64,000 bases of DNA, from the NCBI GenBank assembly GCA_963662275.1, contig OY759316.1:1504001-1568000 (forward strand), written 5' to 3'. Each line of letters starts with the position of its first letter. Position 1 is the first letter of the stretch. Both the position numbers and the translations under genes were made by a program. The notes under the pieces are model-generated. The model made no database searches and was not told the origin of the DNA. It saw only the letters and a program-made list of their open reading frames with translations. Source of the DNA: Candidatus Cloacimonadales bacterium (GTDB lineage Bacteria; Cloacimonadota; Cloacimonadia; Cloacimonadales; DAONDQ01). Positions 3,173 to 31,924 of this stretch are shown piece after piece.

Positions 3173-3304
3173 AATCAAATTGATATGAGATGCGGTAACA
3201 GTAATAATAACATTTAATAATGTGTTGATAGCTGGAGAGTTTATCCCTCCGAACAACGTACCCGTAAAGGGTACGGCTATTGATAAATAAAAGGAGTTTA
3301 AGAC

Positions 3305-4531
3305 ATGACAAGGCTTCACATATATCTTCACTGTGCAACATTGTTTGTTGCTGCTGGGATCCTTTTAGCAACAGGAGGATGTAACAATCCTGCAAGTAAT
3401 GATGTGGAAATGCAGATTATTCCTCGTGACCCGGCATATGCAGGATGCTATCCGGTAGTGAGCACCAGTCAAACAGCTTGTTGGGACAGTGCCGGCACCC
3501 TAATCACTCCTGTAGCAGGCGACGCATTTTTTGGACAAGATGCTCAGTATAATCATACAAATCCTATTTACACAAAAAGCAGCGATGGAAAGACAGTAAA
3601 AGACGAAGTAACCGGCTTAACATGGCAGCAAAGCTATAGCAGTGGAACTTATTATTGGGCAGCAACTCAAACTGTAGTGAACAATCTGAACAAGCAGGAA
3701 TATGGTGGCTACAGCGACTGGCGCCTTCCAACTATAAAAGAATTATACTCTTTATGGAATGCATCCGTTGGCTGGCCTTATATTGATACAAACTATTTTA
3801 CTATCAATTACAGCAGTGAGGAAGATCTGAGCCATGCCATTTTCTGGAGCAACGATAAATATTCCGGAGTATTGGGCAACATAAGCGGAGCGCCTGGCGC
3901 AGAACCTGGCGCAGAACTTGCCTTTGGTGTGAATTTTGGCACAGGACATATCAAAGCGTATAGTATCAGTGTCGGTCCAAAGCACTTAGTTCGATGCGTG
4001 AGGGGCAATCTTGCATACGGTGTAAATCTATTTCAGAATAATGGTGACGGAACTATTTCTGATTTGTCTACCGGTTTGATGTGGCAACAAACCGACAGTG
4101 GCTCGGGGATAGATTGGGAAAATGCACTGGCTTATGCTCAAACGCAGAATAGCGCAAATTATCTGGGACACAACGATTGGCGATTACCAAATTCCAAGGA
4201 ACTTCAAAGTCTGGTGGATTATACCCGTTCTCCAGGTGCAACAAACTCAGCCAATGTAGGAACGGCAATAAATCCCTTATTCAGTTGTACAGCCATTACA
4301 AACGATGGTGGAAAAGCTGACTATCCCTATTACTGGACAAGTACATCGGCCATTTCAATAGCAAATGGTTCTTATCCTTCTGCATGGTATGTGGCTTTTG
4401 GAAGAGCGGAAGATGGAAATGGTGAAGATCTTCATGGTGCCGGTGCAGTGCGTTTTGATGCTAAGGTATTGGGAAGCGGTGAAGGAGAAGAAAGAGTTTT
4501 AAATTATGTACGTCTTGTAAGAACCAATTGA
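3305..4531 (+). CDS. DUF1566 (Lcl) domain lipoprotein
   Basis: Lipobox-like ATGGC; two TGLxWQQ...DWRLPxxKEL repeats; paralogue of upstream gene. Confidence 0.85.
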   Translation: MTRLHIYLHCATLFVAAGILLATGGCNNPASNDVEMQIIPRDPAYAGCYPVVSTSQTACWDSAGTLITPVAGDAFFGQDAQYNHTNPIYTKSSDGKTVKDEVTGLTWQQSYSSGTYYWAATQTVVNNLNKQEYGGYSDWRLPTIKELYSLWNASVGWPYIDTNYFTINYSSEEDLSHAIFWSNDKYSGVLGNISGAPGAEPGAELAFGVNFGTGHIKAYSISVGPKHLVRCVRGNLAYGVNLFQNNGDGTISDLSTGLMWQQTDSGSGIDWENALAYAQTQNSANYLGHNDWRLPNSKELQSLVDYTRSPGATNSANVGTAINPLFSCTAITNDGGKADYPYYWTSTSAISIANGSYPSAWYVAFGRAEDGNGEDLHGAGAVRFDAKVLGSGEGEERVLNYVRLVRTN

Positions 4532-8423: not shown

Positions 8424-8683
8424 TAAATCCTCCCATTTTTTAACTTAGTAAAAATATATACTATGTATATACGTCAACCTAACTCAAGTTATTGATATTA
8501 TGGAGTGGAAATTATGTCAAGAAATAATTTGGATTTTGGAATTATTTGGGAGTATATATTTAGACTATAAAACTGAAATAAAATGATATCTCTCTAAGTA
8601 AATTAATGCTCGGATTACGAATGGAAGATAAGCAGAGATTTTACGTCTCTATCTGAGTGTTGAAAGCATAGGAAATACGTATT

Positions 8684-8714
8684 AAAAAGGCTGCCGAATG
8701 AATTCCAGCAGCCT
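8684..8714 (-). terminator. Intrinsic terminator
   Basis: aaaaaggctgc...gcagcctt hairpin just past the stop of the endonuclease gene. Confidence 0.65.
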
Positions 8715-8741
8715 TATGTGACATTGAGTAAGAACTAATGA

Positions 8742-11693
8742 TTACTTCATCAGGATGATCTTCCTTGAGGATAGTGAATTCCCATCTTTCACCTGGACAA
8801 GATAAATACCACTCGGACAGGTTACATTCTTTGCATCAGTTCCATCCCAGGATAGATTATATTCACCCGCATTCTTCATACCTGTAGCCAATGTACGAAT
8901 GTGCTGTCCTTTCAGATTATAAATTTCAATCTTCACATCGGATGTTTTTGTGATCGAGAAGGGAATACTCACTGATTGATTGAAAGGATTTGGATACATA
9001 TTTTGTAAAACAAGATTCCCATTACTCGTGGGGGTTTGAGGAGTGTCAGGTGTACCTTTCCCTTTTAAGGTCAGGTTGAATGTTGGATAGAAACCGACTC
9101 GGGCTTCTTTTCCGCCACTGACATCAGTAATACCAAATACAAGGGTATGATCATCAGCCATCATATCAGTATTTCTGACTTTGATCGTAATTTCCTTTGG
9201 AGTTGAACATCCAGCCGGGAAAACAACTGTTTGTGGGACAAAGTTCTCAACTTCATTTGAATCCCCATCCCTGAAGATGATCTGGGCAATTGTGGGTTCA
9301 GTTGGGCTTGGATTTTCTATCGAAACATTCATTGTTACAGTACCGGTTTCCTTATCGAAGGCAGCACTTGCAGGACTGAATCCTAACACTGTATTAGTCG
9401 CTTTCGTTCCGTATACACTGGATACATATTCCGGGTGATCAATATACGGATTGCGATTTGTCAGGAAGGTCTTGATAGATGCATTACGATTAAATTCCCA
9501 GGTACTAACCGGATCAGCAGTATTCCAAGCGAGCATCGTGGGCAGCATATCCACACCGTCTATACTTAGGCTCATCTCGTAACGAGTGTTGAAATACAAC
9601 AATGCCCTAGCGCAATCACCTTTGTGTTGGGCTGATGGTTCAAACACAGTCTGTCCTGCTGCATTTGTTCCCCGTTTGCTGACATAGCCATTATATGAAG
9701 AATAGGTTGTTGTTTGAGTTGTTACTACACCATAGGGTATATTTCCCCTGGAAGAATTAACACCGGAGTTAGTAGGGAAAAGATGATGCAGATCCGCTGT
9801 CTTTTGATTCACTTCACTTGTGCCCATCCAGCTTTGGCAGAATGTATGCTCTGTATTTGGATCCGTACTGCCGGTATAGGTTGTTCCAACAGTATAATTC
9901 TGACCGATATACACACATTGAATAACATTTCCGGCTGTCAAATCGAGGGTTTGATACAGATACACTTTTGCTCCTGAATAACTTGAATATGTATTTGTAG
10001 AAATCAGATTATGTAAGCCTGTCTTTAATGCTGCACCGGTAAGACCTGCAACAGGAGTGTAATAACCATTGAATGGATCAGTGGCAGTGGTAGTCGCAGA
10101 AATAGTATTCGAGGAAGCACTCGTGCCGTAAGTGTTATAGGCTCGTACTCTGTAATAGTATATAGTAGAAGCACTTAATCCTGTCACTGATTTGGTTGTT
10201 GTTGTGACTACAAGATTATTGAAACCGGTGACGAAAGTACCGAATGAGTTACTTGTGGAGACATCCAGGTAATAACCTGTTGCACCTGTGGAAGCATTCC
10301 AGTTTGCCGTGAAACTGTTCAATGTAATCGAAGAGGCTGTTATCGCTACAGGTGCGGATGGTGCTGAACCGGCAGTACTGGTAGTAAAAGATAGATCAGT
10401 TCCATATGCAGTGCCAGCGCTGTTGGTTGCATAAGCTCTGACATGATAGAGCGTTGATGCAGTTAATCCTGTAATAGCGCTTGTGAATGTACCAGTACCA
10501 GTACCATTGGTTGTATGGTTTCCTGTTGCTACTGGATTTGCTGTCGTAGCCCAGCATACACCTTTTGCCGTGACAGAAGCTCCGCCATCAGCGGTAACAT
10601 TTCCTCCACTTGTGGCAGTTGTTGATGTGATTGCAGAGGGAGTAGTCGTTGAAACTGTCGGTATGACTGCTGCAGGGGTACTTGTAGTAAAAGACAGATC
10701 AGTTCCATAAGCAGTACCAGCGCTATTGGTCGCATAAGCTCTGACATGATAGAGCGTTGATGCAGTTAATCCTGTAATAGCACTTGTGAATGTACCAGTA
10801 CCAGTGCCGTTTGAAGTATGGCTTCCTGTTGCTACGGGATTTGCTGTTGTAGCCCAGCATACACCTTTTGCTGTGACAGAAGCTCCGCCATCAGCGGTAA
10901 CATTTCCTCCACTTGTTGCTATGGTTGTTGTTATTGCTGATGGAGTAGTAGTCGATACTGTCGGCACAGTAGCTGCAGCTCCTGCGGCAGTGATGGATAC
11001 ATTATCAATACCCAATCCTTGGGCATTTGTGGTTGTAGTACCGGATGTGACTGAATAATTCCAGGCAAGATATAGACTGCTTCCAGTTGCTAGTGTTGTC
11101 GTGAGTGTTTTACTCGTAACATTTGAAGTACTCCCGGGAGCAGTGGTGAAACCATTATTATCGGCATTGGCAGCAAAAGAAGTCAGGAAGTTTGCTCCCG
11201 CTGATGTCCATGTTGTTCCATTCGTTGAATAATACATTTGAATTGAATAACCAGCAGCATTTGAGCCATTCCGATATTTCTCAACACCATAAGAAATTGT
11301 GAAACTTGAAATAGAAGATGTTCCATTATTAGTTAATATCGTATATAGATTACCGCTAACTGTACCAGTTCCAGATGAAATCCAGCCTACAGCGCGATCT
11401 GTGGCAGTACTGGCAACACCGGCTCCATAATTGTAAATTCCGTTTCCAGCAGTGGAAGACATAGAATTTCCTGCTGATAGAGCTGTCGCTGTTAAAGCTG
11501 CAGAATATGTCCCCAATGTCCGAGCTGTAGTATTCTTATCTACCTTCCATCCGGTAGGTAAGGTTGCGGTAGCGCTTGTTCCAATGGTGAACCCTTCGGT
11601 TATGTTACCACCGGCACTTATGTTTATGGCTGAAAGGGTGGATATCGTAACCATAAAAATAAGAAGAATATAAACTAGATTCTTTTTCAACAC
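8742..11693 (-). CDS. Secreted endonuclease I-family nuclease with FN3 repeats and FlgD-like tail
   Basis: Likely GTG start 11693 with RBS GAGAGG; NTEHTFCQSW, DLHHLFPT, NSSRGN, KGDCARALLYFNTRY, NRNPYIDHPEY; YHVRAYATN FN3 units. Confidence 0.85.
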   Translation of the reverse strand: MLKKNLVYILLIFMVTISTLSAINISAGGNITEGFTIGTSATATLPTGWKVDKNTTARTLGTYSAALTATALSAGNSMSSTAGNGIYNYGAGVASTATDRAVGWISSGTGTVSGNLYTILTNNGTSSISSFTISYGVEKYRNGSNAAGYSIQMYYSTNGTTWTSAGANFLTSFAANADNNGFTTAPGSTSNVTSKTLTTTLATGSSLYLAWNYSVTSGTTTTNAQGLGIDNVSITAAGAAATVPTVSTTTPSAITTTIATSGGNVTADGGASVTAKGVCWATTANPVATGSHTSNGTGTGTFTSAITGLTASTLYHVRAYATNSAGTAYGTDLSFTTSTPAAVIPTVSTTTPSAITSTTATSGGNVTADGGASVTAKGVCWATTANPVATGNHTTNGTGTGTFTSAITGLTASTLYHVRAYATNSAGTAYGTDLSFTTSTAGSAPSAPVAITASSITLNSFTANWNASTGATGYYLDVSTSNSFGTFVTGFNNLVVTTTTKSVTGLSASTIYYYRVRAYNTYGTSASSNTISATTTATDPFNGYYTPVAGLTGAALKTGLHNLISTNTYSSYSGAKVYLYQTLDLTAGNVIQCVYIGQNYTVGTTYTGSTDPNTEHTFCQSWMGTSEVNQKTADLHHLFPTNSGVNSSRGNIPYGVVTTQTTTYSSYNGYVSKRGTNAAGQTVFEPSAQHKGDCARALLYFNTRYEMSLSIDGVDMLPTMLAWNTADPVSTWEFNRNASIKTFLTNRNPYIDHPEYVSSVYGTKATNTVLGFSPASAAFDKETGTVTMNVSIENPSPTEPTIAQIIFRDGDSNEVENFVPQTVVFPAGCSTPKEITIKVRNTDMMADDHTLVFGITDVSGGKEARVGFYPTFNLTLKGKGTPDTPQTPTSNGNLVLQNMYPNPFNQSVSIPFSITKTSDVKIEIYNLKGQHIRTLATGMKNAGEYNLSWDGTDAKNVTCPSGIYLVQVKDGNSLSSRKIILMK
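10381..10964. repeat. Tandem duplication (period 303 bp) encoding two near-identical FN3-like modules
   Basis: 10381-10661 matches 10684-10964. Confidence 0.85.
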
Positions 11694-12146
11694 ATTACAC
11701 CTCTCTTTTGATTTTTTTAGAATGTTCTGGTTTGACAAGTAACCACTTGAATCACATATGTTAATTGTGACATTTTGTGAAACCTTGCAAAAATAATGCA
11801 AGGATTTTATTTAGAAAAGATCATTTATTTTGTGTCTTGTGAATTTGATTAACCAAGAATCTGAAAGAAATCACGAATAAACCAGGAAAATTATGTAATT
11901 TCAAGATTGTTATATTTCGATTAACTTATTTATACATTTGTACATATCGTATCAATTCTCTCATCTGAATTGCACATGAAAACCAAAGCAGAGACGCCCA
12001 ACTTAAGCGTCTCTACACTGTGAACAATCCTTCATGACCACTAATTACTAGATAATATTCTATCAAAAAGGCAATTTACGAGATATCTCTTGACATATAG
12101 AAACATATTGTTTTAATCAAGACATATTTAGAGAAAGGAGTTTCTT

Positions 12147-13403
12147 ATGAAAAGATTTGGTAGTGTAATTTTAATCTGCTTATTACCACTTATATTAATC
12201 GGTATGAGTACAGATTGGATGAATCAGATTCGTACTCCAAACAATCCTTCAAATGTTGCTAATATCTTAAGTAAAATTGCGGATTTGAATGGCAGAGACA
12301 ATGCTCGTACCTGGATGCAATCGGAAGTCATTAATCAAAGTTGGACGACCGAATGGACAGGTACATTCCGGTCTGTATATACTTATAATAGTCAGGGTAA
12401 TATGGCAACAGTAACTTACTTTTTACCTGAAACCAATACTTCTGGATGGTCAACTTTCCAAAGAATTACTTATACTTATAATGAACAGAATTGGATGACG
12501 ATGGTATACTATGAATCGTTCTCTACTGGCAACTGGTTACCTCAATACCGCTTATTAGTGACATATACCGGTGAATTTTCTGCGGAGTCTGTTTCGCAAA
12601 ACTGGTCAACTGATACTAATTCCTGGACTGATACTTATAAGACTTTTATGACATACAATGCCTCTCATCAATTGGCCGAAAGCCTAATGCAATCCTACCA
12701 GGGAGAAAACCTGGTAAATGTGTCCAAGACAATTTATACCTATGAGAATGGGCATTATACAGAATTGTTAAGCCAGAGCTGGGTGAATTCTGTATGGGTT
12801 AACGGTGGAAGACAGCTTTTTACATATAATGGAAATGATGAAGTTTTGTATTATTATCAAGCTTGGACAAACGATGCTTGGCAAAACACAACAAAGAGAA
12901 CCACTAGTTATATTAGTCCCAGTCATCCAGAAGTTATTATCATTTATAATTGGGGTGCAGATATTACAGATTGGCAATTGTCTCAGCAATCACTCTATAT
13001 GTATGATGCAGATAATAACTATTCGATCATTTTGTCACAAAACTATACTGGTGGAACTTGGATCGATGCATCCAGGCAACTGTTTTCCTGGTCGAATATT
13101 ACAGGGAACGATGAGCAGATTTCTTCTGCTCCTGTAATGAGCTCTAGTAACTACCCCAATCCTTTTCACCAGGCTACATCGATTTGTTTTCAATTAAAAA
13201 AACAAGCGAGTGGGAATATTGAAATTTATAATATCAAAGGACAGAAAGTCAAAATAATTCCTTTCCAGTTTCAGTCAGGCAGTCATGAATTGAAATGGGA
13301 TGGTAGAGATGAGATGAATCGGGAAACTAGTTCCGGTATTTATTTGTATCATGTTAATGTCAATCATGTTCCTGTGATACGAAAAATGGTCAAGTTATTC
13401 TGA
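12147..13403 (+). CDS. Secreted repeat protein with FlgD-like tail
   Basis: Signal peptide; repeated W...YTY units; NYPNPF...IYNIKGQ...SSGIY. Confidence 0.8.
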   Translation: MKRFGSVILICLLPLILIGMSTDWMNQIRTPNNPSNVANILSKIADLNGRDNARTWMQSEVINQSWTTEWTGTFRSVYTYNSQGNMATVTYFLPETNTSGWSTFQRITYTYNEQNWMTMVYYESFSTGNWLPQYRLLVTYTGEFSAESVSQNWSTDTNSWTDTYKTFMTYNASHQLAESLMQSYQGENLVNVSKTIYTYENGHYTELLSQSWVNSVWVNGGRQLFTYNGNDEVLYYYQAWTNDAWQNTTKRTTSYISPSHPEVIIIYNWGADITDWQLSQQSLYMYDADNNYSIILSQNYTGGTWIDASRQLFSWSNITGNDEQISSAPVMSSSNYPNPFHQATSICFQLKKQASGNIEIYNIKGQKVKIIPFQFQSGSHELKWDGRDEMNRETSSGIYLYHVNVNHVPVIRKMVKLF

Positions 13404-13420
13404 TTTGTAATTCTAGCTAT

Positions 13421-13449
13421 AAAAGTGGGGGCATCATCCCCACTTTTTT
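13421..13449 (+). terminator. Intrinsic terminator
   Basis: aaaagtgggg-gcatcat-ccccactttttt. Confidence 0.8.
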
Positions 13450-13991
13450 ATTCGTAAATGTTTTAATCTCTATTTAATGACTCATAACTGACTTATCTGT
13501 TTATACTAATTTATCTTTGAAGATTCTATATCAAAATAGAATAAAATCCGTTTTATGGACCTCGTTAAGGGTTTATGGTGTTTAATGTTGAATAGCATTT
13601 GTGCAATGATAATTGCAACTATATTTGTATTTCTAGTTTCATTAAATTAGATTTAGTTAAATAAATCTTGACGGTCTATTTGTTTTTTTATAAATAAATA
13701 AAGAGTTTATAATGCTTTTTAAAGTGTATTTAAAGCTCTAGTTAATCTCAATCAAAAAAATAGTTCGTTTACTTCGAAAGTATAATGCATTAGATGCAGA
13801 TGAGATGGTAGCGCAATTTAACTTTACTAATCTGCAGTGAGTGATCAATTGTACAACATGCATATTCTTCAACTGGATGGAACAGATTGGCGAGTACTAC
13901 TAAAGGAAGCGACCAGTAGGAATTTACGATATATAAATCGTTTGTAAAATTTTCAGAGTAAAGTATCTGCAAATAGTGAGCTAGTAAAAAA

Positions 13992-16433
13992 GTGCGAATG
14001 GAGAGAAGAGTGAGTTCCAATATCAGAGGCAAACAATTATTCATAAGCTATTCAAGTTCAGACATAGATTTTGCCAATAATCTATGTCTGATTCTTGAAG
14101 AGAATGGAGTGAACTGCTGGATTGCTCCGCGTGATATTAGACCCGGTTGTTATTGGGATGAAGAAATTAGCTATGCTGCTGATGAATGTAGTGGGTTGGC
14201 ATTATTGTTAAGTGAGAATTCGAATAGATCAGATATTGTGGCGAAAGAAGTAGCATTATTTGCGAGCAGAGGGAAAGCTATATTTCCATTAAGAATTGAA
14301 CCAGTGATACTCTCTAAGAGACTTGAGTTACATTGCAGTTCTCTTCATTGGATTGATTTAAAGGAAGAAGAATTACCCCAATGTGCGATAATGTTAGTAG
14401 ATTCCATAAAACAAAAATTGTGCATTTCAGACAGTGTATCCAATCAGACTGTATCAAGTGGTCAGTATGTTCAATCATCATTACCATTCTCATCCAACCC
14501 GATAGGAAATATGATATCTAGTGAAATCTCGTATAGTAATGCAATTGCCAGATTAGGTATATGTCCTTTGACTTATCATCGAGAAGTACTGATACAAAAA
14601 GGACTAATTGCCTTGAGGAATGGGAAATTCCAAGGTATTTTATTACAGGGCTTACCTGGTTGTGGTAAAACAACCTTGATGGTAGAAATAGCACAGGAAG
14701 TGAAAAGCGATTTTGATATATTTATTAGCTTTCGCTTTAGCGGGCAGCGAGAGATAGATCCCTCTTTCTTCATTTATGAACTAAACAAATGCTTAAAATG
14801 CATAGGTCGTGAAATAGATACCGCAGGGATTCAAAAGGCAGATTTCAGGATTATTTTGCAGAACTTGGTATCCCGATTATCAGATCAAAAGGTATTGCTT
14901 TTGCTTGACTCAGTCGATATGGCACCACTTGGAGTCATCGACACATTACTTAGTGCGTTACCAGTTGCACCACATGTAAGAACAATAATGACAGCTCAAC
15001 TCAGAGTCACTGGAAAATTAGGAGCAACTGCCATAGATGTTCCTCAGTTATTAATTGAAGAGACTGAGGAATTAATCCATCTATTTTCTGATTTGACGGG
15101 TATAGAAATAGATGTGAGTGATTTTATTACAAAATTACCTAAATATGTTGTCTGTAATCCATCTGCTCTGATGGTTGTATTAAGGAATCTTATTGACATC
15201 CCCTTGGAATTTCTCTTACCTGATAATCTGCCTGAGGAATCGAGAGTCGCTTTTGAGATGAATAAGCATATAATAGAATCATTGACCAGCGAAGAAAAAG
15301 ATCTCTTATGTTTAATCGCATTTTTTGATGATGTGAAATTGATTTCGGTTCGAGAAGCGCTTTTAATTACATTTCCTATCAATTTTGGTCAATTAATCGG
15401 TAAGTTAGTAGATCGCTCACTTATCACACGTACTGGAGACAGTTTCTATGTAGCTTCAATTGTGTGGGATGGTCTTGTCGAGGTTTGTGGTGATCGTATT
15501 CAATCTATTGCCCAGAAATTAGCCACAGCGGTTGAATCTTCAACACAAAAAATTCAAAGATTGAACTCTGATGAGGCAGATAACTTAGCACTTCCTATAT
15601 GTGCAGTGATTCATAAACTTCATGAACTGAAAATGTGGGATTTACTGATAACTCTAACCTGTGAAAAATTCTTGGAAACCTTGAACATTAGAGGTTTTTG
15701 GAAAGAATACTGGTATATTTTGCGACTGTTATTCGATTCTTATCGAAGTTCTGGTAATTTATTAGCTGGAGCTGGGATTGGGTTTAGGATTCTCAGAAAA
15801 GCTTTCCAGATGAAGGATGAGGCACTTGGGAAAAAGATTCTTCAAGAACTTTCACAAGTAATACTGATTGAGGATTCGCTGAATTATGCTGAACTGTTGA
15901 GCCATACTGCTTTATATACTGAACGAAGTGTAAATCCGGAACAAGCTTTAAAAGAACTTGAGGAAAGCTGCAGAATTAGAGAAAAATTAGGAGATTCGAT
16001 AGGATTGGCAATCGTAAAAAAATTAATCGGGAATATCTACCTTAGAAAAGGTGAATTTACTAAAGCGAGCGAATATTACAAAGAATCGTTAGGACTCTTG
16101 GAAAAGTTACAGGATGAGTTCAAGCAATCTCTGGAAACCGAAACCAGCTTAGCATTGTGTGATTTGATGTCTGGTCATGTTGAAGTGGCAGAAAATAGGC
16201 TTCGTGAAGTCATCGAGATGTGTCACAGAACTGGTTATATGGCTGGTTTACCTCGGGCATATTATCATTTAGTATTGGTGATGAATCAACTTGGCCGATT
16301 TCTAGAGGGTGTTCATTACGCAGAGCTAGCGATTATCGAAGCGAAGAAAACTTTTTCGGATATTGCCATAGCTGCGAATCTGTTGCTATCTTTTTGTCAG
16401 CAAAAAATAGTACATGAAGGAGAAGAAAAATGA
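13992..16433 (+). CDS. TIR - STAND P-loop NTPase - TPR (NLR-like) protein; start possibly GTG 14010
   Basis: TIR LFISYSSSD...CWIAPRDI...SDIVAKEV; Walker A GLPGCGKT; Walker B VLLLLDSVD; NPSAL; wHTH-like LVDRSLI; TPR IGNIYLRKGEFTKASEYYKESL. Confidence 0.88.
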   Translation: MRMERRVSSNIRGKQLFISYSSSDIDFANNLCLILEENGVNCWIAPRDIRPGCYWDEEISYAADECSGLALLLSENSNRSDIVAKEVALFASRGKAIFPLRIEPVILSKRLELHCSSLHWIDLKEEELPQCAIMLVDSIKQKLCISDSVSNQTVSSGQYVQSSLPFSSNPIGNMISSEISYSNAIARLGICPLTYHREVLIQKGLIALRNGKFQGILLQGLPGCGKTTLMVEIAQEVKSDFDIFISFRFSGQREIDPSFFIYELNKCLKCIGREIDTAGIQKADFRIILQNLVSRLSDQKVLLLLDSVDMAPLGVIDTLLSALPVAPHVRTIMTAQLRVTGKLGATAIDVPQLLIEETEELIHLFSDLTGIEIDVSDFITKLPKYVVCNPSALMVVLRNLIDIPLEFLLPDNLPEESRVAFEMNKHIIESLTSEEKDLLCLIAFFDDVKLISVREALLITFPINFGQLIGKLVDRSLITRTGDSFYVASIVWDGLVEVCGDRIQSIAQKLATAVESSTQKIQRLNSDEADNLALPICAVIHKLHELKMWDLLITLTCEKFLETLNIRGFWKEYWYILRLLFDSYRSSGNLLAGAGIGFRILRKAFQMKDEALGKKILQELSQVILIEDSLNYAELLSHTALYTERSVNPEQALKELEESCRIREKLGDSIGLAIVKKLIGNIYLRKGEFTKASEYYKESLGLLEKLQDEFKQSLETETSLALCDLMSGHVEVAENRLREVIEMCHRTGYMAGLPRAYYHLVLVMNQLGRFLEGVHYAELAIIEAKKTFSDIAIAANLLLSFCQQKIVHEGEEK

Positions 16434-16690
16434 GTGAAACTTTAGATGATATCGCATTACGAAGGCTCATTACTGATGAGATGCAAAAAAGGGTATTAGA
16501 AGTGATAAGTTGTAACGGGTGGTTAAATTTGGATAGTAGATCAAACTATGAATCTATTCCAGAGTTTATTGCTTCAAACGGTCATGATATCAAAAAAGTA
16601 CAAATGATTTTTGAAGACATTTGGGTTCATTTTAACACTGAAGTTGTTTTACCACTATCAACCGAGATTGCTCCATATTTTTCTGGATAA
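16430..16690 (+). CDS. Unknown 86-aa protein, coupled to the TIR-STAND gene
   Basis: ATGA overlap and RBS AGGAG; no recognisable motif. Confidence 0.7.
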   Translation: MSETLDDIALRRLITDEMQKRVLEVISCNGWLNLDSRSNYESIPEFIASNGHDIKKVQMIFEDIWVHFNTEVVLPLSTEIAPYFSG

Positions 16691-16699
16691 TAAATCACA

Positions 16700-18628
16700 A
16701 TGAAGAATTTTGACAAGCTTACTAAATTGCTTATTCATGCAGGACTTAATAGTCCCTACTATGCCGATAAGATATCAATAAATCAAGATACTCCCCCTGA
16801 GGCTATAGAATCTTATCTAAATTCAATACCAATTCTTAATAAAAGAGATGTTAGACAAAAAAAGCACAGAATGCTGTCATCTATTGCTGATCTTTCTGAG
16901 ATTAAAAGACTACAAACTACAGGAACTACCGGTGAGCCTCTTGATATATTTGTTGATAAGTCATTTATCAATAATGAAAATCTTCTTTTCGGTAAGCATA
17001 TCACGCGATGTCTTAGAAATTCCGATTGGACTTCAAAAATAACCTATTACCTTCAGCTACATGCTAGTGCAACTTCAAATTGTATGCCTGCAATATGGAA
17101 TCCAAACAGCTACGTCGTGAAATGGAACCTTGCACGAGCCTGGCAAGCGACGGATAATCATTTCCTAGAGTACCTGGACAGAATCAATGATTGTGTTGTA
17201 ACTACAATGCCATCCGTAGCAGATTTATTATGCAGGAGAATTACTGAAGCAAAAGCGATTGGGCGAATAAAACCTTTACTTGTGATTTGTTCTGGTGAAT
17301 CACTCTCAGAAAAAGTAAGAGATAAGATTCAAAGTGCTTTTCAATGTCCTGTTACATCATTATATACAATGACAGAATCTGGAATAGCGGCTTTTGAAAT
17401 AGAAAATGGATTGTATGATGTGGAAAGTGATTCGGTATTTCTTGAAATATTAGATGAGAATGCAAAACGAGTTAATCCTGGTGTAGAAGGAAACATTATT
17501 GTGACCGTCCTGAATAATTTCATCATGCCATTAATCAGGTACCAAACTGGTGATAGAGGTAGTTGGACAGATAACGGGCTATTAAGAATCAGCGAAGGAA
17601 GAATTCCGTACCATTTGATAACAACTTCAGGTGGGACTGTCAATTCAGTAAGATTCGCAAAAATACTGGCATCTTTGAATGTCGAAAAGTATGCTTTTAG
17701 CCAGGATGAGTCGGGCGCTATCACTTTCTCCTATTTTTCGACTGATAACCAATTAGATTCTATGAGTTGCAATGTTATTCAGGCAGCAATTTTAGGTTCA
17801 ATTGGACCGGGTATGAAAGTAATATTTAAGAGGTTAACTGAACCGGAGAAAGTATCGGAATATGATAATCGAAAAGTATCATTAAATCAAATTTCTGTGA
17901 AGTCCGCTGAACAGATTGGACCAAATATTGAGGAAGTTTCGAGTTGGTTAAAGAGTGTTCTTAGTAATGAACCTCAAATATTTTCTGCTGTTCTGACCGG
18001 TTCTTTTTTAGATTTGACTGGTTCAACCCGATATAGTGATATTGACCTAGTTATTTTTGTAGAAGGGAATCCGATAGCTACTCGTTGGTTAATGCTTACA
18101 AAGAAGCTAAAAAAAAGAATTCCTTCAATTTCTGTACATATAGATACCCAGAAAGACTTACATAAACGCTCTCCCATGCTTGCATGTCGTTTGCTACGAG
18201 AACACAGTCAAGTTATAGGGTATCCCATCGAAGATGTTGTGCTATTGCCTGATACAAAACTCATCAAAGAACAAGGTGTTTATCGAAGCCAGGAAGTTCT
18301 TGGGCTTTTACAGTTACAACTGGCAAATGTTGAACAAGATAGATTGAATCCGATTCGTGAAGCATGGATTACACGGAAGTTCCTGATAGATATTTTTCGA
18401 TATAGATATATCCTCCAGGGAGAGCAAGAAACTTCTTTATCTTACATTGTTCAGAAAATGCAAAATGATCCTATCATCAATATTCAGGAACTCAAGTGCA
18501 TTGATAATATGCATCAAACTGCCTGCGAATATATTCCGCCACTCTCAGATTATGAACAAATTTCATCTTGGTATTATGTAGCATTAAAACTTATTAAAGA
18601 TGTTCAATGTGAAATTATGAATAATTGA
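16700..18628 (+). CDS. PaaK/CapK-like adenylate-forming (ANL) ligase fused to a Pol-beta-type nucleotidyltransferase and a helical C-domain
   Basis: QTTGTTGEP, CSGESL, LYTMTESG, MPLIRYQTGDRG; then VLTGSF...SDIDLVIFV. Confidence 0.82.
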   Translation: MKNFDKLTKLLIHAGLNSPYYADKISINQDTPPEAIESYLNSIPILNKRDVRQKKHRMLSSIADLSEIKRLQTTGTTGEPLDIFVDKSFINNENLLFGKHITRCLRNSDWTSKITYYLQLHASATSNCMPAIWNPNSYVVKWNLARAWQATDNHFLEYLDRINDCVVTTMPSVADLLCRRITEAKAIGRIKPLLVICSGESLSEKVRDKIQSAFQCPVTSLYTMTESGIAAFEIENGLYDVESDSVFLEILDENAKRVNPGVEGNIIVTVLNNFIMPLIRYQTGDRGSWTDNGLLRISEGRIPYHLITTSGGTVNSVRFAKILASLNVEKYAFSQDESGAITFSYFSTDNQLDSMSCNVIQAAILGSIGPGMKVIFKRLTEPEKVSEYDNRKVSLNQISVKSAEQIGPNIEEVSSWLKSVLSNEPQIFSAVLTGSFLDLTGSTRYSDIDLVIFVEGNPIATRWLMLTKKLKKRIPSISVHIDTQKDLHKRSPMLACRLLREHSQVIGYPIEDVVLLPDTKLIKEQGVYRSQEVLGLLQLQLANVEQDRLNPIREAWITRKFLIDIFRYRYILQGEQETSLSYIVQKMQNDPIINIQELKCIDNMHQTACEYIPPLSDYEQISSWYYVALKLIKDVQCEIMNN

Positions 18629-18805
18629 CTTTTTTGTTTTAAAAGAAGAAAAAAAATAAGATTATGATTAGCTACGAGTCTATGTTTAAATATAACTAAT
18701 CCATCCAAACTCATAATAATTCAAAAAGTGGCATAAATAAATGAGGAAACCACGGCAATAATATGCGAGAAAAACGCAAAAAGACATTTTTATTAATTCT
18801 GTAGA

Positions 18806-19028
18806 TAAGGGGGGCAGGAATAAGAGAGAAATGGTAATAGTTAAGAAGGTGTAGGCTGTGACGGCATGACGGCAATTTTAACAGTTTTTGAGAATAAGAG
18901 AAATTTTAAGAAGAAAAGGGAATTGTGCATAAATAAACGAGAAATTTAAGGGCTATTTACTGCATAAATAAACGAGAAATTTAAGGGCTATTTACTGCAT
19001 AAATAAACGAGAAATTTAAGGGCTATTT
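18806..19028 (+). repeat. Prophage left end: putative transposase-binding sites
   Basis: Terminal site GCAGGAATAAGAGAGAAAT at 18814, plus a 35-bp unit TGCATAAATAAACGAGAAATTTAAGGGCTATTTAC at 18926, 18961 and 18996. Confidence 0.85.
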
Positions 19029-19454
19029 TTGTGAAAGTACGATATACAAGACAATGGATAATACTATTATAATATCAAATTGAATCCACATAGTATCAGA
19101 AATACGATTTATAGCTTTGGTTTGTTGAGCATTCATATATAAAGCAAATTCACGATCGGTCATTTTACTAATGTCGGGAGCTTGGTATCCTGGAACTGTG
19201 ATGTTTTCAAGCTTGTTATCTCTACCTGCAGCAATTAACCCAGCTTTGACATCTACACCATTATCATCCAGGAGAGTAGCAACCTGGTTCTTATAAATCA
19301 CCACCATTCCCTTATCTGTATTAACAACAAAACTCCTGGCATCATTTGATTTGATGGTTCCTGTGATAATGCGTCCATCTGTGGTGGTAAAGACAAGAGC
19401 ATTGGATATAACAACGAATGTGAACAGGATAAAGATTGAAATAAGCTTCTTCAT
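19023..19454 (-). CDS. Exported/membrane-anchored protein co-transcribed with the repressor
   Basis: N-terminal signal peptide, C-terminal hydrophobic helix, 9 bp after the repressor stop. Confidence 0.7.
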   Translation of the reverse strand: MKKLISIFILFTFVVISNALVFTTTDGRIITGTIKSNDARSFVVNTDKGMVVIYKNQVATLLDDNGVDVKAGLIAAGRDNKLENITVPGYQAPDISKMTDREFALYMNAQQTKAINRISDTMWIQFDIIIVLSIVLYIVLSQK

Positions 19455-19463
19455 GATTTCCTC

Positions 19464-20135
19464 CTAATAGCGCCTAAAACAGAACATGAGAACACCGATA
19501 ATTTCGATGTCCCGGGTTTCTTCCCAATGAAATACAATGGGATCGTAGCATTGATTGATAGGGATCAGCAAAGTGGTTTCGCATTTATGGTTATAGATTA
19601 GTCTCTTCAAGGTAATACCACCATCCACCCGGAAGGCACAAATCTTATGGTCCAGAGCCAGCCTGTCAAAGTCACTATTGATGAGGATGATATCCCTATG
19701 CATAATCTCCGGTTCCATGCTGGACCCATGCACTCTAAAACAGATGATCTTATCTGGATGTGGGATCAATGACTTCTCCAGGGTAATGTGCATTAGGGGT
19801 TCCTGGTTGTTATATATTTCAATGGGCGGACCCGCGGCTATCTCCCCCACAACCGGAATACTAATAGTACGCGCGCGAGGGGATGGAAGATTTAAGATTG
19901 AAGATTGAATATCTTGGGGATCGGAAAGGAACATGGAGCCTTCCCCGGTGAGAAGCCAGTTGATATTGACGTTATAGACTTTTGACAGGGATTTAAGAAA
20001 ATCGGATTCAGGGGTTGTTTTATCATTAATATATCGACTGATAGCAGCTTGGGTATAGCCTAAAGCTTGCGAAAAATCAACTTGATTCAAATTATTTTCA
20101 AGACGTATCTTATTGATACGCTTACCAATGCACAT
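19464..20135 (-). CDS. Phage repressor, XRE HTH plus S24 (LexA/CI-like) peptidase
   Basis: LNQVDFSQALGYTQAAISRY, NWLLTGEG; IAAG cleavage site, GSSMEP, TLKRL. Confidence 0.92.
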   Translation of the reverse strand: MCIGKRINKIRLENNLNQVDFSQALGYTQAAISRYINDKTTPESDFLKSLSKVYNVNINWLLTGEGSMFLSDPQDIQSSILNLPSPRARTISIPVVGEIAAGPPIEIYNNQEPLMHITLEKSLIPHPDKIICFRVHGSSMEPEIMHRDIILINSDFDRLALDHKICAFRVDGGITLKRLIYNHKCETTLLIPINQCYDPIVFHWEETRDIEIIGVLMFCFRRY

Positions 20136-20254: not shown

Positions 20255-20512
20255 GTGAGGTTTACTATGGAGATAAAGAAAACGTACACACGAGAGCAAA
20301 TCAAGGCAGCAATGGCGTTGAAGCGATTAAACGTCTATAAATTGGCTGCTAAACTTCAATTAAGCAGCAGGCAGACCAACAGATTGATTTCCTGCAACAA
20401 CAATCAAGTATCTGAACGTAGTAATGATCAAATGATAGAGGCTCTACAGCCTCATTTGGAAGCGATCGCCAAATTAGAAGCTAAATTAGCTAAGAAGGAG
20501 AGAGTAGCATGA
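20255..20512 (+). CDS. Ner/Cro-like HTH regulator
   Basis: First early gene, divergent from the repressor; IKAAMALKRLNVYKLAAKLQLSSRQTNRLI. Confidence 0.7.
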   Translation: MRFTMEIKKTYTREQIKAAMALKRLNVYKLAAKLQLSSRQTNRLISCNNNQVSERSNDQMIEALQPHLEAIAKLEAKLAKKERVA

Positions 20513-21282
20513 TTCAGCGATATACTAATAAGCAATTGCAGGTTTCACTTGGGATCAGCAGACAGGCAGTGGATAAACGTGCTCTCAAGGAAGGCTGGAA
20601 GTCAGAAATCGTTTATGAACGTGGTACGCACAATAAATATTATTGGGTGGACCTGCAAAGCAACCAAAGCAACCAAAGCAACCAAAGCAACCAAAGCAAC
20701 CAAAGCAACCAAAGCAACCAAAGCAACCAAAGCAACCAAAGCAACCAAAGCAACCAAAGCAACCAAAGCAACCAAAGCAACCAAAGCAACCAAAGCAACC
20801 AAAGCAACCAAAGCAACCAAAGCAACCAAAGCAACCAAAGCAACCAAAGCAACCAAAGCAACCAAAGCAACCAGTTGACTCCCGAAGAGCGGGCGGAGCT
20901 AGATGCAATCAATGTTGTACTGCGTAAGAGGGTATGGTGGAAGCCATTTAAGAACGAAAAAGGACTATATCCATACCGATTGAATGATGGACCTGTGGTT
21001 TTGGCGACTTTTAGCACAATGGAATCGTTCAAAGACTATTTTGGACCCAATGACAAAGTAAAGTTTTTAGTCGATAATGAATATCAGGAAATCAAGATGA
21101 TCCGCTTTGATATGCCTGATATTATGGTGAGTTTAGAGCCGATGGATATGACCAACACCGAGGAACTGGAGACCTTCCTGGCTATCGGCTTGGAAAACTG
21201 TTTGATATGGATGGATGAGGAAGCAGGAAGCAACCTGAAGGATGCTACTACCGATGCTACAACCAAGAGGGAGGAATCATGA
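20509..21282 (+). CDS. Mu-type HTH protein with (QSN)24 tract
   Basis: LGISRQAVDKRALKEGW; coupled to neighbours by ATGA overlaps. Confidence 0.7.
   Translation: MIQRYTNKQLQVSLGISRQAVDKRALKEGWKSEIVYERGTHNKYYWVDLQSNQSNQSNQSNQSNQSNQSNQSNQSNQSNQSNQSNQSNQSNQSNQSNQSNQSNQSNQSNQSNQSNQSNQSNQLTPEERAELDAINVVLRKRVWWKPFKNEKGLYPYRLNDGPVVLATFSTMESFKDYFGPNDKVKFLVDNEYQEIKMIRFDMPDIMVSLEPMDMTNTEELETFLAIGLENCLIWMDEEAGSNLKDATTDATTKREES
20656..20871 (+). repeat. Perfect 9-bp tandem repeat (CAAAGCAAC)x24
   Basis: 216 bp, read directly. Confidence 0.97.
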
Positions 21283-23157: not shown

Positions 23158-23451
23158 ATGATAGTTTCACAAGTAATTAAAGAGCGGATAACCCTATATG
23201 TCTTGAAAAGTACGACATGGGAAGATGCTCCCCTGCAAGTTGAAATCAAAGGGAATGTGTCAGAACTGACTAAGCTGAGAAATATGATCGACTGTGCTAT
23301 CAGCTATGTTGCCGGCAAAACCAACGGCTTTGATGAAGATGATATTGATACACTGCACTTTACCGTGGAAGCCTATTCAGATGATAAGAAGCTGCGTGAG
23401 AAAATTGATAAAGGACCATCGCCAGAGAATCCTTTTGGATGTGGAAAATGA
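23158..23451 (+). CDS. Hypothetical early protein
   Basis: 97-aa ORF with ATGA overlap into the transposase. Confidence 0.55.
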   Translation: MIVSQVIKERITLYVLKSTTWEDAPLQVEIKGNVSELTKLRNMIDCAISYVAGKTNGFDEDDIDTLHFTVEAYSDDKKLREKIDKGPSPENPFGCGK

Positions 23452-25793
23452 GCTGGCTCAGTGTAAAAGACTTTGCTGCTATGATGGGGATATCCCGCCA
23501 GGCGGTGCTGAAAGGAATTGCGAAAGAGAAATATACGACCAGGGAAGTAACTGGTAGAAATCAGCATGGTGTTAGTTATGAGATACTGCATGAAAAAGAG
23601 AGAAAAAGCGACAACCAAATCATAGAAGCGACAACCGACAACCGACAACCGACAACCAAAAGCGACAACCAACAGGTTGGAATCGGCGTTATGAGCGGAG
23701 AAGGCAGCGACAACCTGGCAGAAGGGAATAGGGAGAAGGGAGTAGGGAATAGTTCGGAACAGATAGACCCCCCTACCCCCCTTGCCAAGGGGGGATTATC
23801 TGATTTACCCGCTGACACTTCGACTGCGCTCAGTGCAAGCGTGGGCGCTACAGACGGTAAGCTAAAGCATACCACTGCCGAAACGAGGCTACTTGAGAAG
23901 GAACAGAAGCTATTTGACGCTCATGAGACGGTGGAAAAGGAAAGGGCGTGGAGTCGGAAAGAGATCGTGGAGATCTACCGGAATGAACGTCTGGATGTGA
24001 AGTTTGAGGGCGTGAGCCTTGCAGCTATCGATGATCTTTTCCAAAAAGCGCTGGATAATGGTGAAATCTGCAAAAAGCAAATGCTGATCCTGGGCGTTCA
24101 GGTTCTTTCATTGAAAACTATCAAAAAATGGGATAAAAAGCTGAGAGATGGCAAAGATGCAAAATATCCGTTGTGCCTGATCGATCAGAAGAAGAATAAG
24201 AGCGGACGGAAGCCTTTGGAAGTATCTCCTGAGCTGAAAAGAGATATAGAATTGATGGCACTTTCCACACATGGGCTGGACGGTTCCACAATTTTCAGGG
24301 CTATTCAGAGTAAGGCAGATGCAGGTTTATATGTAAATCCCTATCAGCCCAGGACTGTGCTTCTGAAAGTTCAGGAATATCGCAATGACAGATACCTGGC
24401 TAATATGGCAGCCGGTGCCAAGAAGTTCAAAAATGGTTCAAAACCGCACATTTGGCGCAAAGCAGATGCCTATCCCCGTGATATTTGGGAAAGTGATGGT
24501 CACCGGTTCAATGCGTTCGTACAATCGCCGTTCTGGTTTCACAATAATCAGAGTTTCAGGCTTCTAGTGAGACCAATGGTCATTATGTTTCTTGATAGGT
24601 GTACCGGATTGATCGCTGCTCATCGCGTTTTTATTAGTGAGAACTTTCATATTGTTAAGACTACCTTTGCTGATGGTGTGAGCAAATGGGGCGTTCCCAA
24701 AGTTGTCATGACAGACAAGGGCGGCGGATACGATAATATCTATACACGTCCGGGATATTATGCCGGACAGAAACGAGTCAATGAGACCGTAAAACGTGCA
24801 CGTGAACTATTTGATAACGGCTATCCGGGGTTCTTCCAGAGTTACGGAGTGGATAGACAGATCATCTGCATCCCAGGGAACCCGGAATCAAAGTCGATTG
24901 AACCGATTTGGAAGCATGTATTCAGTGAATTTGAAAAGAGTCTTTGGGCATATACCGGAGGCTGCATCGATGAACGCCCGGAATACATGCAAATGACAGC
25001 TAAGGCACTGTTTAAGAAATACGGCGATCATATTCCTACCTGGGAGACGTTCTGCGGTCTTGTGGATGCCTGGGTAAATGAATGGAACAATAAGACGCGT
25101 CCTTCGCTCGTGAGCGCTAACGGCAAGATGTTTTCACCTGCAGAGATGTATCGTGAATTCATGGCAATGGATGAAGTGATCATCCCATCTTATGAACAAA
25201 TCATCAGATTATCCTACTTTCCAGTGAAGCGCGTGATCCAGCGTGACGGTATCGAACTGAACGGACTGATCTACCGGCATCCTCAATTTGCCAGCTACCA
25301 GGGCTATCAGATGGAAGTGGAATACGATGAAAACGATATCTACCAGATCTACGTAGCAACCATGAAAGGTGAGAAGTGGGCTTCCAGCGCTAAGCTGATG
25401 ATACCAGGTAGCCTGATCGATCAGGAACAATCTTCATTAGCAATCGCTTCAAGGGCACATTATATGAAGGAAATGGAAGCTGCCTACCTGCAGAGACGGG
25501 AAGCTCACCAACGTAATGAAGCTGAATATCAGAAGTACTTAGCAGGGAGACCGTCTGAAGGCGGTGCTACGCTAAACGAGATCGTACATGATCAAAGCAT
25601 TATCCAGGATGATATCAAGCTAATTGGGATAAGTGATCATATTCGGACGCAACGGCAACCTAAAGGATGCCACCACCGGGATGGCAGGGATCTGGCAGAG
25701 GTGCAGCCGGAGTGGAATGCCCTCGTGGAAGAAGCAATTGCAGAAGGGAACAGGGAACAGGGAACAGGGAACAGGGAACAGGGAACAGCTTAG
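23448..25793 (+). CDS. MuA-like DDE transposase
   Basis: N-terminal HTH (GISRQAV); WESDGH, VMTDKGGGY, NPESKSIE; Mu-like C-terminal domain; followed by an AAA ATPase. Confidence 0.92.
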   Translation: MSWLSVKDFAAMMGISRQAVLKGIAKEKYTTREVTGRNQHGVSYEILHEKERKSDNQIIEATTDNRQPTTKSDNQQVGIGVMSGEGSDNLAEGNREKGVGNSSEQIDPPTPLAKGGLSDLPADTSTALSASVGATDGKLKHTTAETRLLEKEQKLFDAHETVEKERAWSRKEIVEIYRNERLDVKFEGVSLAAIDDLFQKALDNGEICKKQMLILGVQVLSLKTIKKWDKKLRDGKDAKYPLCLIDQKKNKSGRKPLEVSPELKRDIELMALSTHGLDGSTIFRAIQSKADAGLYVNPYQPRTVLLKVQEYRNDRYLANMAAGAKKFKNGSKPHIWRKADAYPRDIWESDGHRFNAFVQSPFWFHNNQSFRLLVRPMVIMFLDRCTGLIAAHRVFISENFHIVKTTFADGVSKWGVPKVVMTDKGGGYDNIYTRPGYYAGQKRVNETVKRARELFDNGYPGFFQSYGVDRQIICIPGNPESKSIEPIWKHVFSEFEKSLWAYTGGCIDERPEYMQMTAKALFKKYGDHIPTWETFCGLVDAWVNEWNNKTRPSLVSANGKMFSPAEMYREFMAMDEVIIPSYEQIIRLSYFPVKRVIQRDGIELNGLIYRHPQFASYQGYQMEVEYDENDIYQIYVATMKGEKWASSAKLMIPGSLIDQEQSSLAIASRAHYMKEMEAAYLQRREAHQRNEAEYQKYLAGRPSEGGATLNEIVHDQSIIQDDIKLIGISDHIRTQRQPKGCHHRDGRDLAEVQPEWNALVEEAIAEGNREQGTGNREQGTA
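25746..25787 (+). repeat. (GGGAACA)x6 at the 3' end of the transposase
   Basis: Six perfect heptamers just before stop TAG 25791. Confidence 0.95.
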
Positions 25794-31859: not shown

Positions 31860-31924
31860 AAGAACAGAGAATCAAACGCCCCCTTAATCCCCCTCTTTAT
31901 CCAAAGAGGGGGAGAACGGACCTG

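Follow-up and report, generated by a model that had tools for sequence, protein, structure and literature searches.

A stretch of 64,000 nucleotides from the genome of a Candidatus Cloacimonadales bacterium (contig OY759316.1, positions 1,504,001 to 1,568,000; hereafter the window) carries a cassette of three adjacent genes. Open reading frame (ORF) calling in the window places all three on the same strand at 13992-18628, and we refer to them as g1, g2 and g3 (Table 1). They encode a TIR-STAND-TPR protein, a small helical protein, and a fusion of a PaaK-type adenylate-forming (ANL) ligase with an AadA-like nucleotidyltransferase (NTase). On balance, we read the trio as a STAND/NLR-like conflict system, probably anti-phage and of an undescribed type. 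Its most likely role as a conflict system is abortive-infection anti-phage immunity. The signature is that of a conflict system because the STAND chassis has a swapped N-terminus (TIR, lipase-like hydrolase or membrane segment) and because the distribution is sporadic; such systems typically keep the chassis and vary the effector module, a theme that the accessible text of PMC7159879 and PMC8195603 describes. A first-pass annotation, made from the DNA letters, had proposed an undescribed immunity system at this locus. That proposal stands in so far as the genes form a recurrent unit with no named match, but the locus has no defence-island context.

The trio recurs. A word-indexed protein search with g3 returned 113 proteins at E≤1e-3, of which 52 are of the fusion type (P0002-P0053, E≤6.8e-49, 28-40% identity, mostly 613-661 residues); the remainder are ordinary PaaK-like ligases of about 450 residues. 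Scans of genome and metagenome collections used generic ANL-core patterns, and 159 loci were kept. Ordinary PaaK-like ligases lacking an NTase tail account for 155 of these. The tail is present in L083, L084 and L085, and L004 (Streptosporangium violaceochromogenes) is cut at a contig end, with the g3 tail on another contig. Genome scans with a profile of the tail only added the loci in G437, G660 and G1675. Two pairs of loci, L004 with L178 (85% identical) and L167 with L172 (78% identical), each count as one lineage. With the window included, the g2 gene adjoins the g3 gene in all eight of the eight loci whose neighbourhood was read, and a STAND NTPase gene is adjacent in seven of the eight, that is, in five of six lineages. 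The co-occurrence that the first-pass annotation had asked for is therefore real. Moreover, the true full-length relatives of g3 adjoin STAND genes instead of sitting in the capsule or metabolic clusters that it had feared.

The loci differ in the STAND gene and agree in the other two. In the window, L085, L083, L004 and L178 the three genes are colinear, a STAND-TPR gene homologous to g1 lying upstream of the fusion gene in the last four as in the window, whereas in L167 and L172 the STAND gene is divergently transcribed. The N-terminal module of the STAND protein is a TIR domain in the window and in the relative P0132, a DUF7379/Abhydrolase_6/PGAP1-like alpha/beta-hydrolase in L085, and a hydrophobic segment in L004, L178, L167 and L172 (19-residue Kyte-Doolittle means of 1.98-2.67); in L083 it lies off the contig. 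By the same Kyte-Doolittle measure there is no comparable hydrophobic segment in g1 of the window or in L085. The STAND gene could not be assessed in L084, where an IS200-like gene lies upstream of g2 and g3 and the contig ends. This IS200-like gene is a 151-residue ORF at 79-534 (+), directly upstream of g2, that reads by eye as an IS200/IS605-type Y1 transposase; it takes the place that the STAND gene has in the other loci, and the contig stops just beyond it.

The STAND of G437 and G660 belongs to a second clade. Outside the P-loop, BLASTP shows no resemblance between it and the g1 clade (E 0.64); it is divergently transcribed, it matches AAA_16, NACHT and nSTAND_NTPase4, and a family scan detected no TPR in it. 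Because this unrelated clade keeps g2 and g3 all the same, the g2-g3 pair is a STAND-partnering module. It is the conserved core of the system, and it pairs with at least two STAND clades. This refines the first-pass annotation: the window does encode a TIR-STAND, but TIR is one of at least three N-terminal modules and the core is g2 with g3.

The cassette is rare and patchy, which fits horizontal spread. Within the phylum of the window the g3 tail is found in one of 232 genomes, that of the window itself. In an actinomycete class sample there were two real matches among 401 genomes (G437), and the samples that yielded G660 and G1675 gave two of 56 and two of 401 genomes, respectively. The tail was found in none of 401 genomes in a phylum sample around G668. 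A phylum sample around G672 (401 genomes) gave no fusion but four weak, partial matches (E 1.3e-5 to 7.8e-4), all to small NTases whose frames have 135-268 residues.

The g1 protein has the STAND NTPase core that marks STAND/NLR-like ATPases. NACHT and AAA_16 also match this core in Pfam, below threshold, and the Walker A residues (GxxxxGKT; G220, G225, K226 and T227) and the Walker B residue D306 are invariant across six aligned STANDs. TPR_12 is also detected in the STANDs of L004, L085 and P0132. The TIR domain carries the sequence SDIVAKE at residues 80-86, and Glu86 aligns with a Glu of P0132, the second TIR-bearing relative. We take Glu86 to be the catalytic position by comparison with an S-x-W-C-x-x-E motif, the comparison with solved TIR structures being too weak to confirm it: the g1 TIR has no match among them at E≤0.01, and at E≤10 the matches in the PDB are weak (best E 0.019) and either are to non-catalytic TIRs or end before position 86. 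An alternative gene call gives g1 807 residues (P0156), so that its start is uncertain by six codons. Word-indexed searches for the g1 clade gave four matches and then one, the query itself, and were swamped by generic TPR proteins, so they say nothing on the size of the clade or on further N-terminal domains in it. The TIR, Walker A/B and TPR elements of the first-pass annotation are all borne out by Pfam domains and invariant residues, and every motif that it quoted is present in the translations of g1 and g3.

The g3 protein has two parts. Its AlphaFold model, built with 51 sequences, is of high confidence (predicted local distance difference test, pLDDT, 90.9; predicted template modelling score, pTM, 0.89). 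Residues 1-392 form a complete two-subdomain ANL fold of the PaaK family in Foldseek comparisons (ClxA, 9s45_D, E 4.7e-20; PaaK1, 2y27, E 3.9e-18; also BT_0428, AjiA1 and NatL2), and a VIA structure search aligns 336 residues with 4r1l_A at Z 23.1. At the sequence level, Pfam AMP-binding matches residues 131-268 (E 2.8e-8), and the N-terminal 290 residues are closest in NCBIfam to the DVU_1553 family (E 3.3e-29) and to PaaK-type ligases. Nevertheless, g3 falls below all NCBIfam equivalog cut-offs, at 102 versus 300 bits for DVU_1553, 31.5 versus 646 for PaaK, 26.8 versus 459 for F390 synthetase and 58 versus 520 for FlxY. The ANL motifs are TTGTTGEP at 73-80, SGE at 198-200, YTMTESG at 222-228 and PLIRYQTGD at 277-285. 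Across the 51 sequences conservation is complete or reaches at least 90% at the A3, A5, A7 and A8 residues (T73/G75/G78/P80, Y222/T223/E226/G228, Y281/G284/D285 and R301), and K141-W142-N143 is invariant and specific to the g3 family.

The tail of g3 is predicted to adopt the two-domain O-nucleotidyltransferase fold of AadA/ANT(3'')(9). The VIA search aligns it with ANT(3'')(9) (7uy4_B, Z 14.8, root-mean-square deviation 3.5, 212 of 257 residues) and with AAD(9) (6sxj_A, Z 13.9, 206 of 250 residues), at 12-14% identity in the structural alignment. The Pol-beta NTase with a helical tail that the first-pass annotation had seen can thus be named more precisely. The fold is visible by structure only: searching the PDB sequences with a tail profile gives nothing at E≤1, and the Pfam Pol-beta NTase match at 417-501 (E 9.2e-5, 23 bits) lies under the cut-off of 26.9 bits. 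The hG[GS]...DxD metal-binding signature is kept, as GS at 434-435 and DID at 447-449, and G434, S435, D447, D449, R497, E501, R567 and E610 are invariant in 51 of 51 sequences. Given this conservation of the ANL and NTase residues, both active sites are under selection. In the ESM Atlas the neighbours of the tail are stand-alone NTP_transf_2 'hypothetical proteins' of about 250 residues (score 0.97). The PADLOC model for a CBASS cyclase, PDLC00776, matches g3 at E 2.2e-4 over residues 417-483 only (33-102 of the 287 positions of the model); among the 50 structural matches listed there is no CD-NTase, and ANT(3'')(9)/AAD(9) are the only non-ANL chains.

The g2 protein belongs to no Pfam family (best E 0.088). 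A full HMMER pass over 1.84 billion representative sequences found 42 proteins at E≤1e-3, about 35 of them small proteins of 53-184 residues; multi-stretch matches to long proteins look spurious, as with P0116, an Hsp20 repeat protein. The family has short forms of about 66-86 residues and long forms of 130-184 residues with a common C-terminal core, in which G51 is invariant and F46, H52, D53 and L57 are near-invariant, giving a 'small-small-G-H-D-L' loop. The predicted model is helical and of moderate confidence (pLDDT 66.7, pTM 0.44), with the G-H-D loop capping the last long helix. No fold can be assigned, the best VIA match (Z 6.9) lying within the noise for small helical proteins. The nearest ESM Atlas clusters are auto-named 'immunity protein' at a score of 0.87, below the 0.9 threshold for a lead. 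The family alignment contains no HEPN RxxxxH motif. Predicting a g2-g3 complex gave a score of 0.00 against a mark of 0.32, a result that counts neither for nor against binding. In L167 (G437:C3), at about 8206-8801, the g2 gene is split over two frames, with an in-frame TGA at 8688-8690 before the G-H-D...LPK end; this is either a frameshift or an assembly error, and an intact close relative, P0147, has 176 residues.

The first-pass annotation had suggested that g2 might be a carrier. At the sequence level we reject g2 as an acyl or peptidyl carrier protein, since none of 35 family members matches the PP-binding family PF00550 even at E≤10. If the loop is compared with a GGHSL motif, an analogy that we assume, Asp53 would occupy the position of the phosphopantetheine-bearing Ser.

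Fusions tie g2 to both of its neighbours. P0132, a RefSeq TIR domain-containing protein from Saccharopolyspora shandongensis, is a TIR-STAND-TPR protein with g2 at its C-terminus: it is 27% identical to g1 over 777 residues (E 5e-63), and its residues 820-959 are a complete long-form g2 domain (E 1.3e-41). P0037 and P0161, of 783 residues, have g2 at residues 4-119 (E 3.4e-29) ahead of g3. Their 90% cluster also holds a separate g2 of 132 residues. In the window itself the g1 stop and the g2 start share four nucleotides (ATGA, by the coordinates) and nine nucleotides separate g2 from g3, in agreement with the tight coupling that the first-pass annotation described; the longest antisense ORF within 13992-18628 has 127 codons' worth of residues.

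What follows on immunity, on the way in which the signal runs, and on the substrate and the kind of mark is our inference from these relationships. The STAND protein would be both switch and executioner, its helical-repeat C-terminus keeping it off until a cue arrives. The cue would cause ATP-dependent oligomerization of the STAND and so activate the N-terminal module, which is a TIR, presumably an NADase, in the window and an alpha/beta-hydrolase or a hydrophobic membrane segment in the relatives. The obligatory coupling of STANDs from two unrelated clades to g2-g3 points to a cue that is produced or maintained enzymatically. The g3 protein would use ATP at its PaaK-type carboxylate-adenylating and AadA-like O-nucleotidyltransferase sites to write or make this cue. 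The likeliest cue would be a covalent mark, acyl or AMP, carried by g2 or by the STAND itself, and the less likely one a small ligand, acyl- or nucleotidyl-conjugated. The g2 protein would be a physical adaptor that joins the sensor end of the STAND to g3, a role that its two fusions support, with a STAND in P0132 and with the ligase in P0037.

A more specific version of this scheme is speculative, and we hold it to be improbable as it stands. Here g3 would mark the G-H-D loop of g2 with an acyl or AMP group, the STAND would read the marking state of g2, and altered marking during infection would free the STAND to kill. The His could receive the group, or else the carboxylate of the Asp could be activated at the ANL site. 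A phage could alter the marking by blocking g3, by using up its substrate or by bringing in another one, and the release of STAND oligomerization would then lead to killing by the TIR, the hydrolase or the membrane segment. If this were true, the marking of g2 would serve an NLR-like receptor as a 'second messenger' that is borne by a protein, is written by an enzyme and can be carried over from one STAND clade to an unrelated one.

Should the conflict-system reading hold, NLR-type immunity would gain a new kind of input, and ANL adenylate-forming enzymes and AadA-like nucleotidyltransferases would gain an immune role that our literature searches did not find. The system would also be a compact one, with three genes and clear mutational handles at TIR E86, Walker A K226, ANL E226 and D285, NTase D447 and D449, and g2 H52 and D53. 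The AadA-like fold further hints that some antibiotic-modifying enzymes, or their relatives, are used outside resistance.

Several observations weigh against a conflict system with g2 as a marked adaptor. Just five independent lineages have a visible STAND. The fusion in P0132 is a single sequence on one contig. The 783-residue g2-g3 fusion is in the minority, with two fused sequences (three contigs) versus three unfused ones of 649 residues, and since g2 and g3 overlap, a frameshift may have produced it. In the G437 assembly, g2 is not read in one intact frame. No Ser, Thr, Tyr, Lys or Cys that would be an obvious acceptor is conserved in the signature loop of g2. Within g3, the only conserved Lys in residues 300-410 is K321 (50 of 51 sequences), which lies in helix 316-325; other Lys residues there occur in fewer than 40% of sequences, and the loop at 380-410 is variable and has a low pLDDT. 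We take the usual A10 catalytic Lys of ANL enzymes to lie in the small subdomain near the C-terminus. No Lys is conserved at that presumed position in g3, so its adenylation chemistry may be atypical, and of the ANL motifs that the first-pass annotation called intact, A3, A5, A7 and A8 are conserved but the A10-position Lys is not. The genomic setting does not help the case either. A family scan of the window's flanks found no other defence gene and no multi-system defence island, and the actinomycete loci are flanked by genes for inositol monophosphatase, PhoX, a polyketide synthase (PKS) and an alpha/beta hydrolase, with no defence genes. In L178 one flanking ORF reads by eye as GH18-like. 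Viral contigs gave 258 pattern matches and no relatives, and hence no phage copies.

Signalling might also run in the opposite direction, as the first-pass annotation had proposed. The STAND-TPR protein would then sense a phage protein and switch on g3, the true effector, with g2 as a scaffold, and g3 would make an acyl- or nucleotidyl-conjugate that is toxic or serves as a signal, such as an acyl-adenylate analogue able to poison an aminoacyl-tRNA synthetase or a comparable enzyme. The strict conservation of both g3 active sites favours this idea. So does the chemistry of the structural kin of g3, which act on small molecules (an aryl acid adenylate in ClxA, PaaK, and spectinomycin in ANT(3'')(9)), and so does the fact that g2-g3 is the invariant part of the system. 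However, the STAND carries a variable, effector-type N-terminus of its own (TIR, hydrolase or membrane segment), which makes g3 hard to explain as the effector, and the cassette contains no gene for a receptor or a second effector. We think this reversed order unlikely.

Less probable again is a non-immune module, regulatory, developmental or concerned with small molecules, in which a MalT/AfsR-like STAND ATPase works with a metabolite- or antibiotic-modifying enzyme and the frequency in actinomycetes reflects secondary metabolism. AfsR is weakly matched (E 2.2e-6), as is the MalT-type TPR region (E 0.0072 for the window, 5.8e-7 for L004), the NTase fold is that of antibiotic-modifying enzymes, the G660 locus adjoins type I PKS genes, and defence genes are missing nearby. 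But none of the STANDs examined has a DNA-binding output domain, and the TIR and PGAP1-like hydrolase N-termini are of effector type and not of regulator type. The PKS neighbour is missing from the orthologous G437 locus, and since each lineage has different genes around the cassette, no pathway context is conserved.

The least probable alternative is that two independent units travel together, a self-sufficient Avs-like TIR-STAND-TPR protein and an unrelated g2-g3 toxin-antitoxin-like or resistance pair: many STAND defence proteins function as single genes, the STAND is on the opposite strand in G437 and G660, and in L084 it is an IS200-like gene and not a STAND that lies directly upstream of g2, but the adjacency holds over five lineages, which between them use two STAND clades and three or more kinds of N-terminal module, g1 and g2 overlap in the window, and g2 is fused to a STAND in P0132.

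Table 1. Features of the three-gene cassette and its boundaries in the window
Feature	Position	Strand	Detail
Terminator-like hairpin of the upstream host gene, at the left edge of the intergenic/promoter region of the cassette	13421..13447	+	11-bp stem, 5 GC pairs, T-tail
g1, TIR-STAND(NB-ARC-type)-TPR protein	13992..16433	+	813 residues, GTG start
g1 TIR domain	14040..14366	+	residues 17-125, Pfam TIR_2 E 6.5e-18
g1 STAND NTPase core	14616..15089	+	residues 209-366, NB-ARC E 1.7e-7
g1 best-scoring TPR stretch in the C-terminal helical-repeat sensor region	16023..16220	+	residues 678-743, TPR_12 E 6.8e-10
g2, helical protein	16430..16690	+	86 residues, ATG start
g3, PaaK-type ANL ligase and AadA-like nucleotidyltransferase fusion	16700..18628	+	642 residues, ATG start
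g3 ANL (PaaK-family) module with small C-terminal subdomain	16700..17875	+	residues 1-392
g3 nucleotidyltransferase and helical domain	17915..18616	+	residues 406-639, ANT(3'')(9)/AAD(9)-like fold
Mu-like prophage end motif; right boundary, outside the system	18921..19016		three direct copies, inverted at 54479-54528

The cassette lies between host genes and a prophage. On its left, genes for proteins sorted by the type IX secretion system (T9SS; Por_Secre_tail) end with the gene at 12147-13403, which is followed by the strong hairpin that corresponds to the host terminator placed near 13449 by the first-pass annotation. On its right, as that annotation also had it, stands a Mu-like prophage, whose repressor (helix-turn-helix and S24) is encoded at 19464-20135 and whose Mu-transpos_C transposase is encoded at 23439-25793; it also has a DNA methylase. 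The end motif of the prophage is 21-29 nucleotides long and recurs about 35.5 kb away in two copies of inverted orientation, which are 86-95% complementary. Judged by their sequence and arrangement, the copies are probably the transposase-binding ends of a Mu-like prophage of about 35.6 kb, at about 18921-54528. Since these end repeats leave the trio about 290 bp outside, we rule it out as prophage cargo. The remaining flanks in the window hold an aldo-keto reductase and housekeeping genes, and for that reason the locus is not a multi-system defence island. The GC fraction falls to 0.32-0.38 over 13-19 kb, while the host flank has 0.36-0.46 and the prophage 0.40-0.48, so the AT-rich island of the first-pass annotation exists, but the difference is mild. 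No Rfam family matches within 13300-19100 at E≤0.1, and a promoter scan did not rise above shuffled sequence (22 seen versus 25.6 expected).

Other features of the window concern its host and its prophage. In G100, a genome of the same genus, no orthologue of the flanking gene was found, the T9SS sorting domain being the sole match; the C-terminal 100 or so residues of the gene at 12147-13403, which make up this domain, match 136 open frames in G100, a number that indicates a very large T9SS cargo repertoire in the genus. At 1700-4531 (+) there is a tandem array of paralogues, three consecutive genes with an Lcl C-terminal domain (E 5.5e-17 to 1.4e-51), one of which has a T9SS sorting tail; the array products are secreted proteins. 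The gene at 8742-11801 (-) encodes a T9SS-sorted protein of 1019 residues with an Endonuclease I domain (E 1.7e-40), fibronectin-III repeats and a Por secretion tail, and its product is, by these predicted domains, a large secreted or surface nuclease. In the early region of the prophage, a 257-residue ORF at 20509-21282 (+) contains a long, perfect Ser-Asn-Gln tripeptide run, encoded by a 9-nucleotide tandem repeat in which all frames on both strands are open throughout. Further into the prophage, two identical, self-complementary, GC-rich hairpins of 26 nucleotides lie 582 nucleotides apart (31888-31913 and 32496-32521) and may be terminators or a repeated regulatory element.

Among described systems, those of Kaur, Burroughs, Iyer and Aravind (eLife 2020; PMC7159879) have, as far as its main text goes, much in common with the trio: STAND-type NTPases in operons with accessory enzymes and small, fast-diverging proteins, varying effector domains, and enrichment in actinomycetes. 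Their accessory modules, as that main text gives them, are vWA-MoxR, FtsH, Ubl-ligase and peptidase and not an ANL-AadA-like fusion, and the terms PaaK, adenylat-, acyl- and MNT do not occur in the main text, to which this negative is confined, the supplementary tables lying outside it. The accessible text of a STAND survey preprint (10.64898/2026.01.04.697583, 2026) does not mention PaaK, ligase, nucleotidyltransferase, AMP-binding or operon, and that of PMC8195603 does not mention luciferase, AMP-ligase, acyl-CoA, adenylyl or PaaK; such enzyme terms are likewise missing from the accessible text of defence-discovery preprints. Full-text literature searches, supplements lying outside their scope, gave no paper that ties an ANL/PaaK enzyme or AadA-like NTase to a STAND/NLR protein or an anti-phage operon, and to this extent they agree with the first-pass annotation, which knew of no described defence system with such a pairing. 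PADLOC v2.0.0, too, returned domain-level matches only and no system-level match for the trio, the outcome that the first-pass annotation had expected of a novel system. For g1 its best matches are SAVED_TIR (1e-9), mad8 (2e-4) and TPR (3e-4), and no Avs/NLR model in it matches g1 at E≤0.1.

Two known immune arrangements combine some of the same chemistries. Cap2 of CBASS is an E1/E2-like adenylating enzyme that conjugates the CD-NTase, so that CBASS with Cap2, like the trio, sets a Pol-beta-superfamily NTase and adenylate-forming activation in one immune operon. However, the g3 tail folds as ANT(3'')(9)/AAD(9), its activating enzyme is ANL and not E1, and the trio has neither a CBASS effector nor a cyclic-nucleotide receptor gene, its output being the STAND. 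MNT-HEPN modules are pairs of AMPylating antitoxin and toxin, and resemble the trio in coupling a minimal Pol-beta NTase to a helical partner and in controlling a toxic activity by nucleotidylylation. By contrast, the NTase of g3 has its own fused helical domain and an ANL module, and the toxic module would be on the STAND.

The two halves of g3 also have well-characterized structural counterparts. With ANT(3'')(9)/AadA (7uy4) and AAD(9) (6sxj) the tail shares the two-domain fold over 406-639 and the GS...DxD metal site, but it is fused to a ligase within a STAND cassette, and nothing points to an aminoglycoside substrate. With the PaaK-family enzymes ClxA, NatL2, AjiA1, PaaK1 and BT_0428 (9s45, 6tm4, 6wuq, 2y27 and 4r1m) the ligase module shares the full fold of N- and C-subdomains (VIA Z 21.9-23.1) and the conserved A3, A5, A7 and A8 motifs, but it is only 16-21% identical to them, has its own K141-W142-N143, and lacks a conserved Lys at the presumed A10 position.

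The closest parallels to the whole cassette are the bNACHT and Avs/AVAST STAND defence proteins, reportedly for the most part single proteins that bind phage proteins directly. Like g1, they join an N-terminal effector, which varies and can be a TIR, to a STAND NTPase whose Walker A and B are intact and to a C-terminal repeat sensor, and like the trio they are patchily distributed. The trio differs by two extra conserved genes, one of them for a two-site ATP-using enzyme, and by the pairing of its g2-g3 with a second, unrelated STAND clade. Bacterial NLR-like STANDs are mostly thought to be single polypeptides that sense phage proteins directly; the trio points to a different logic.

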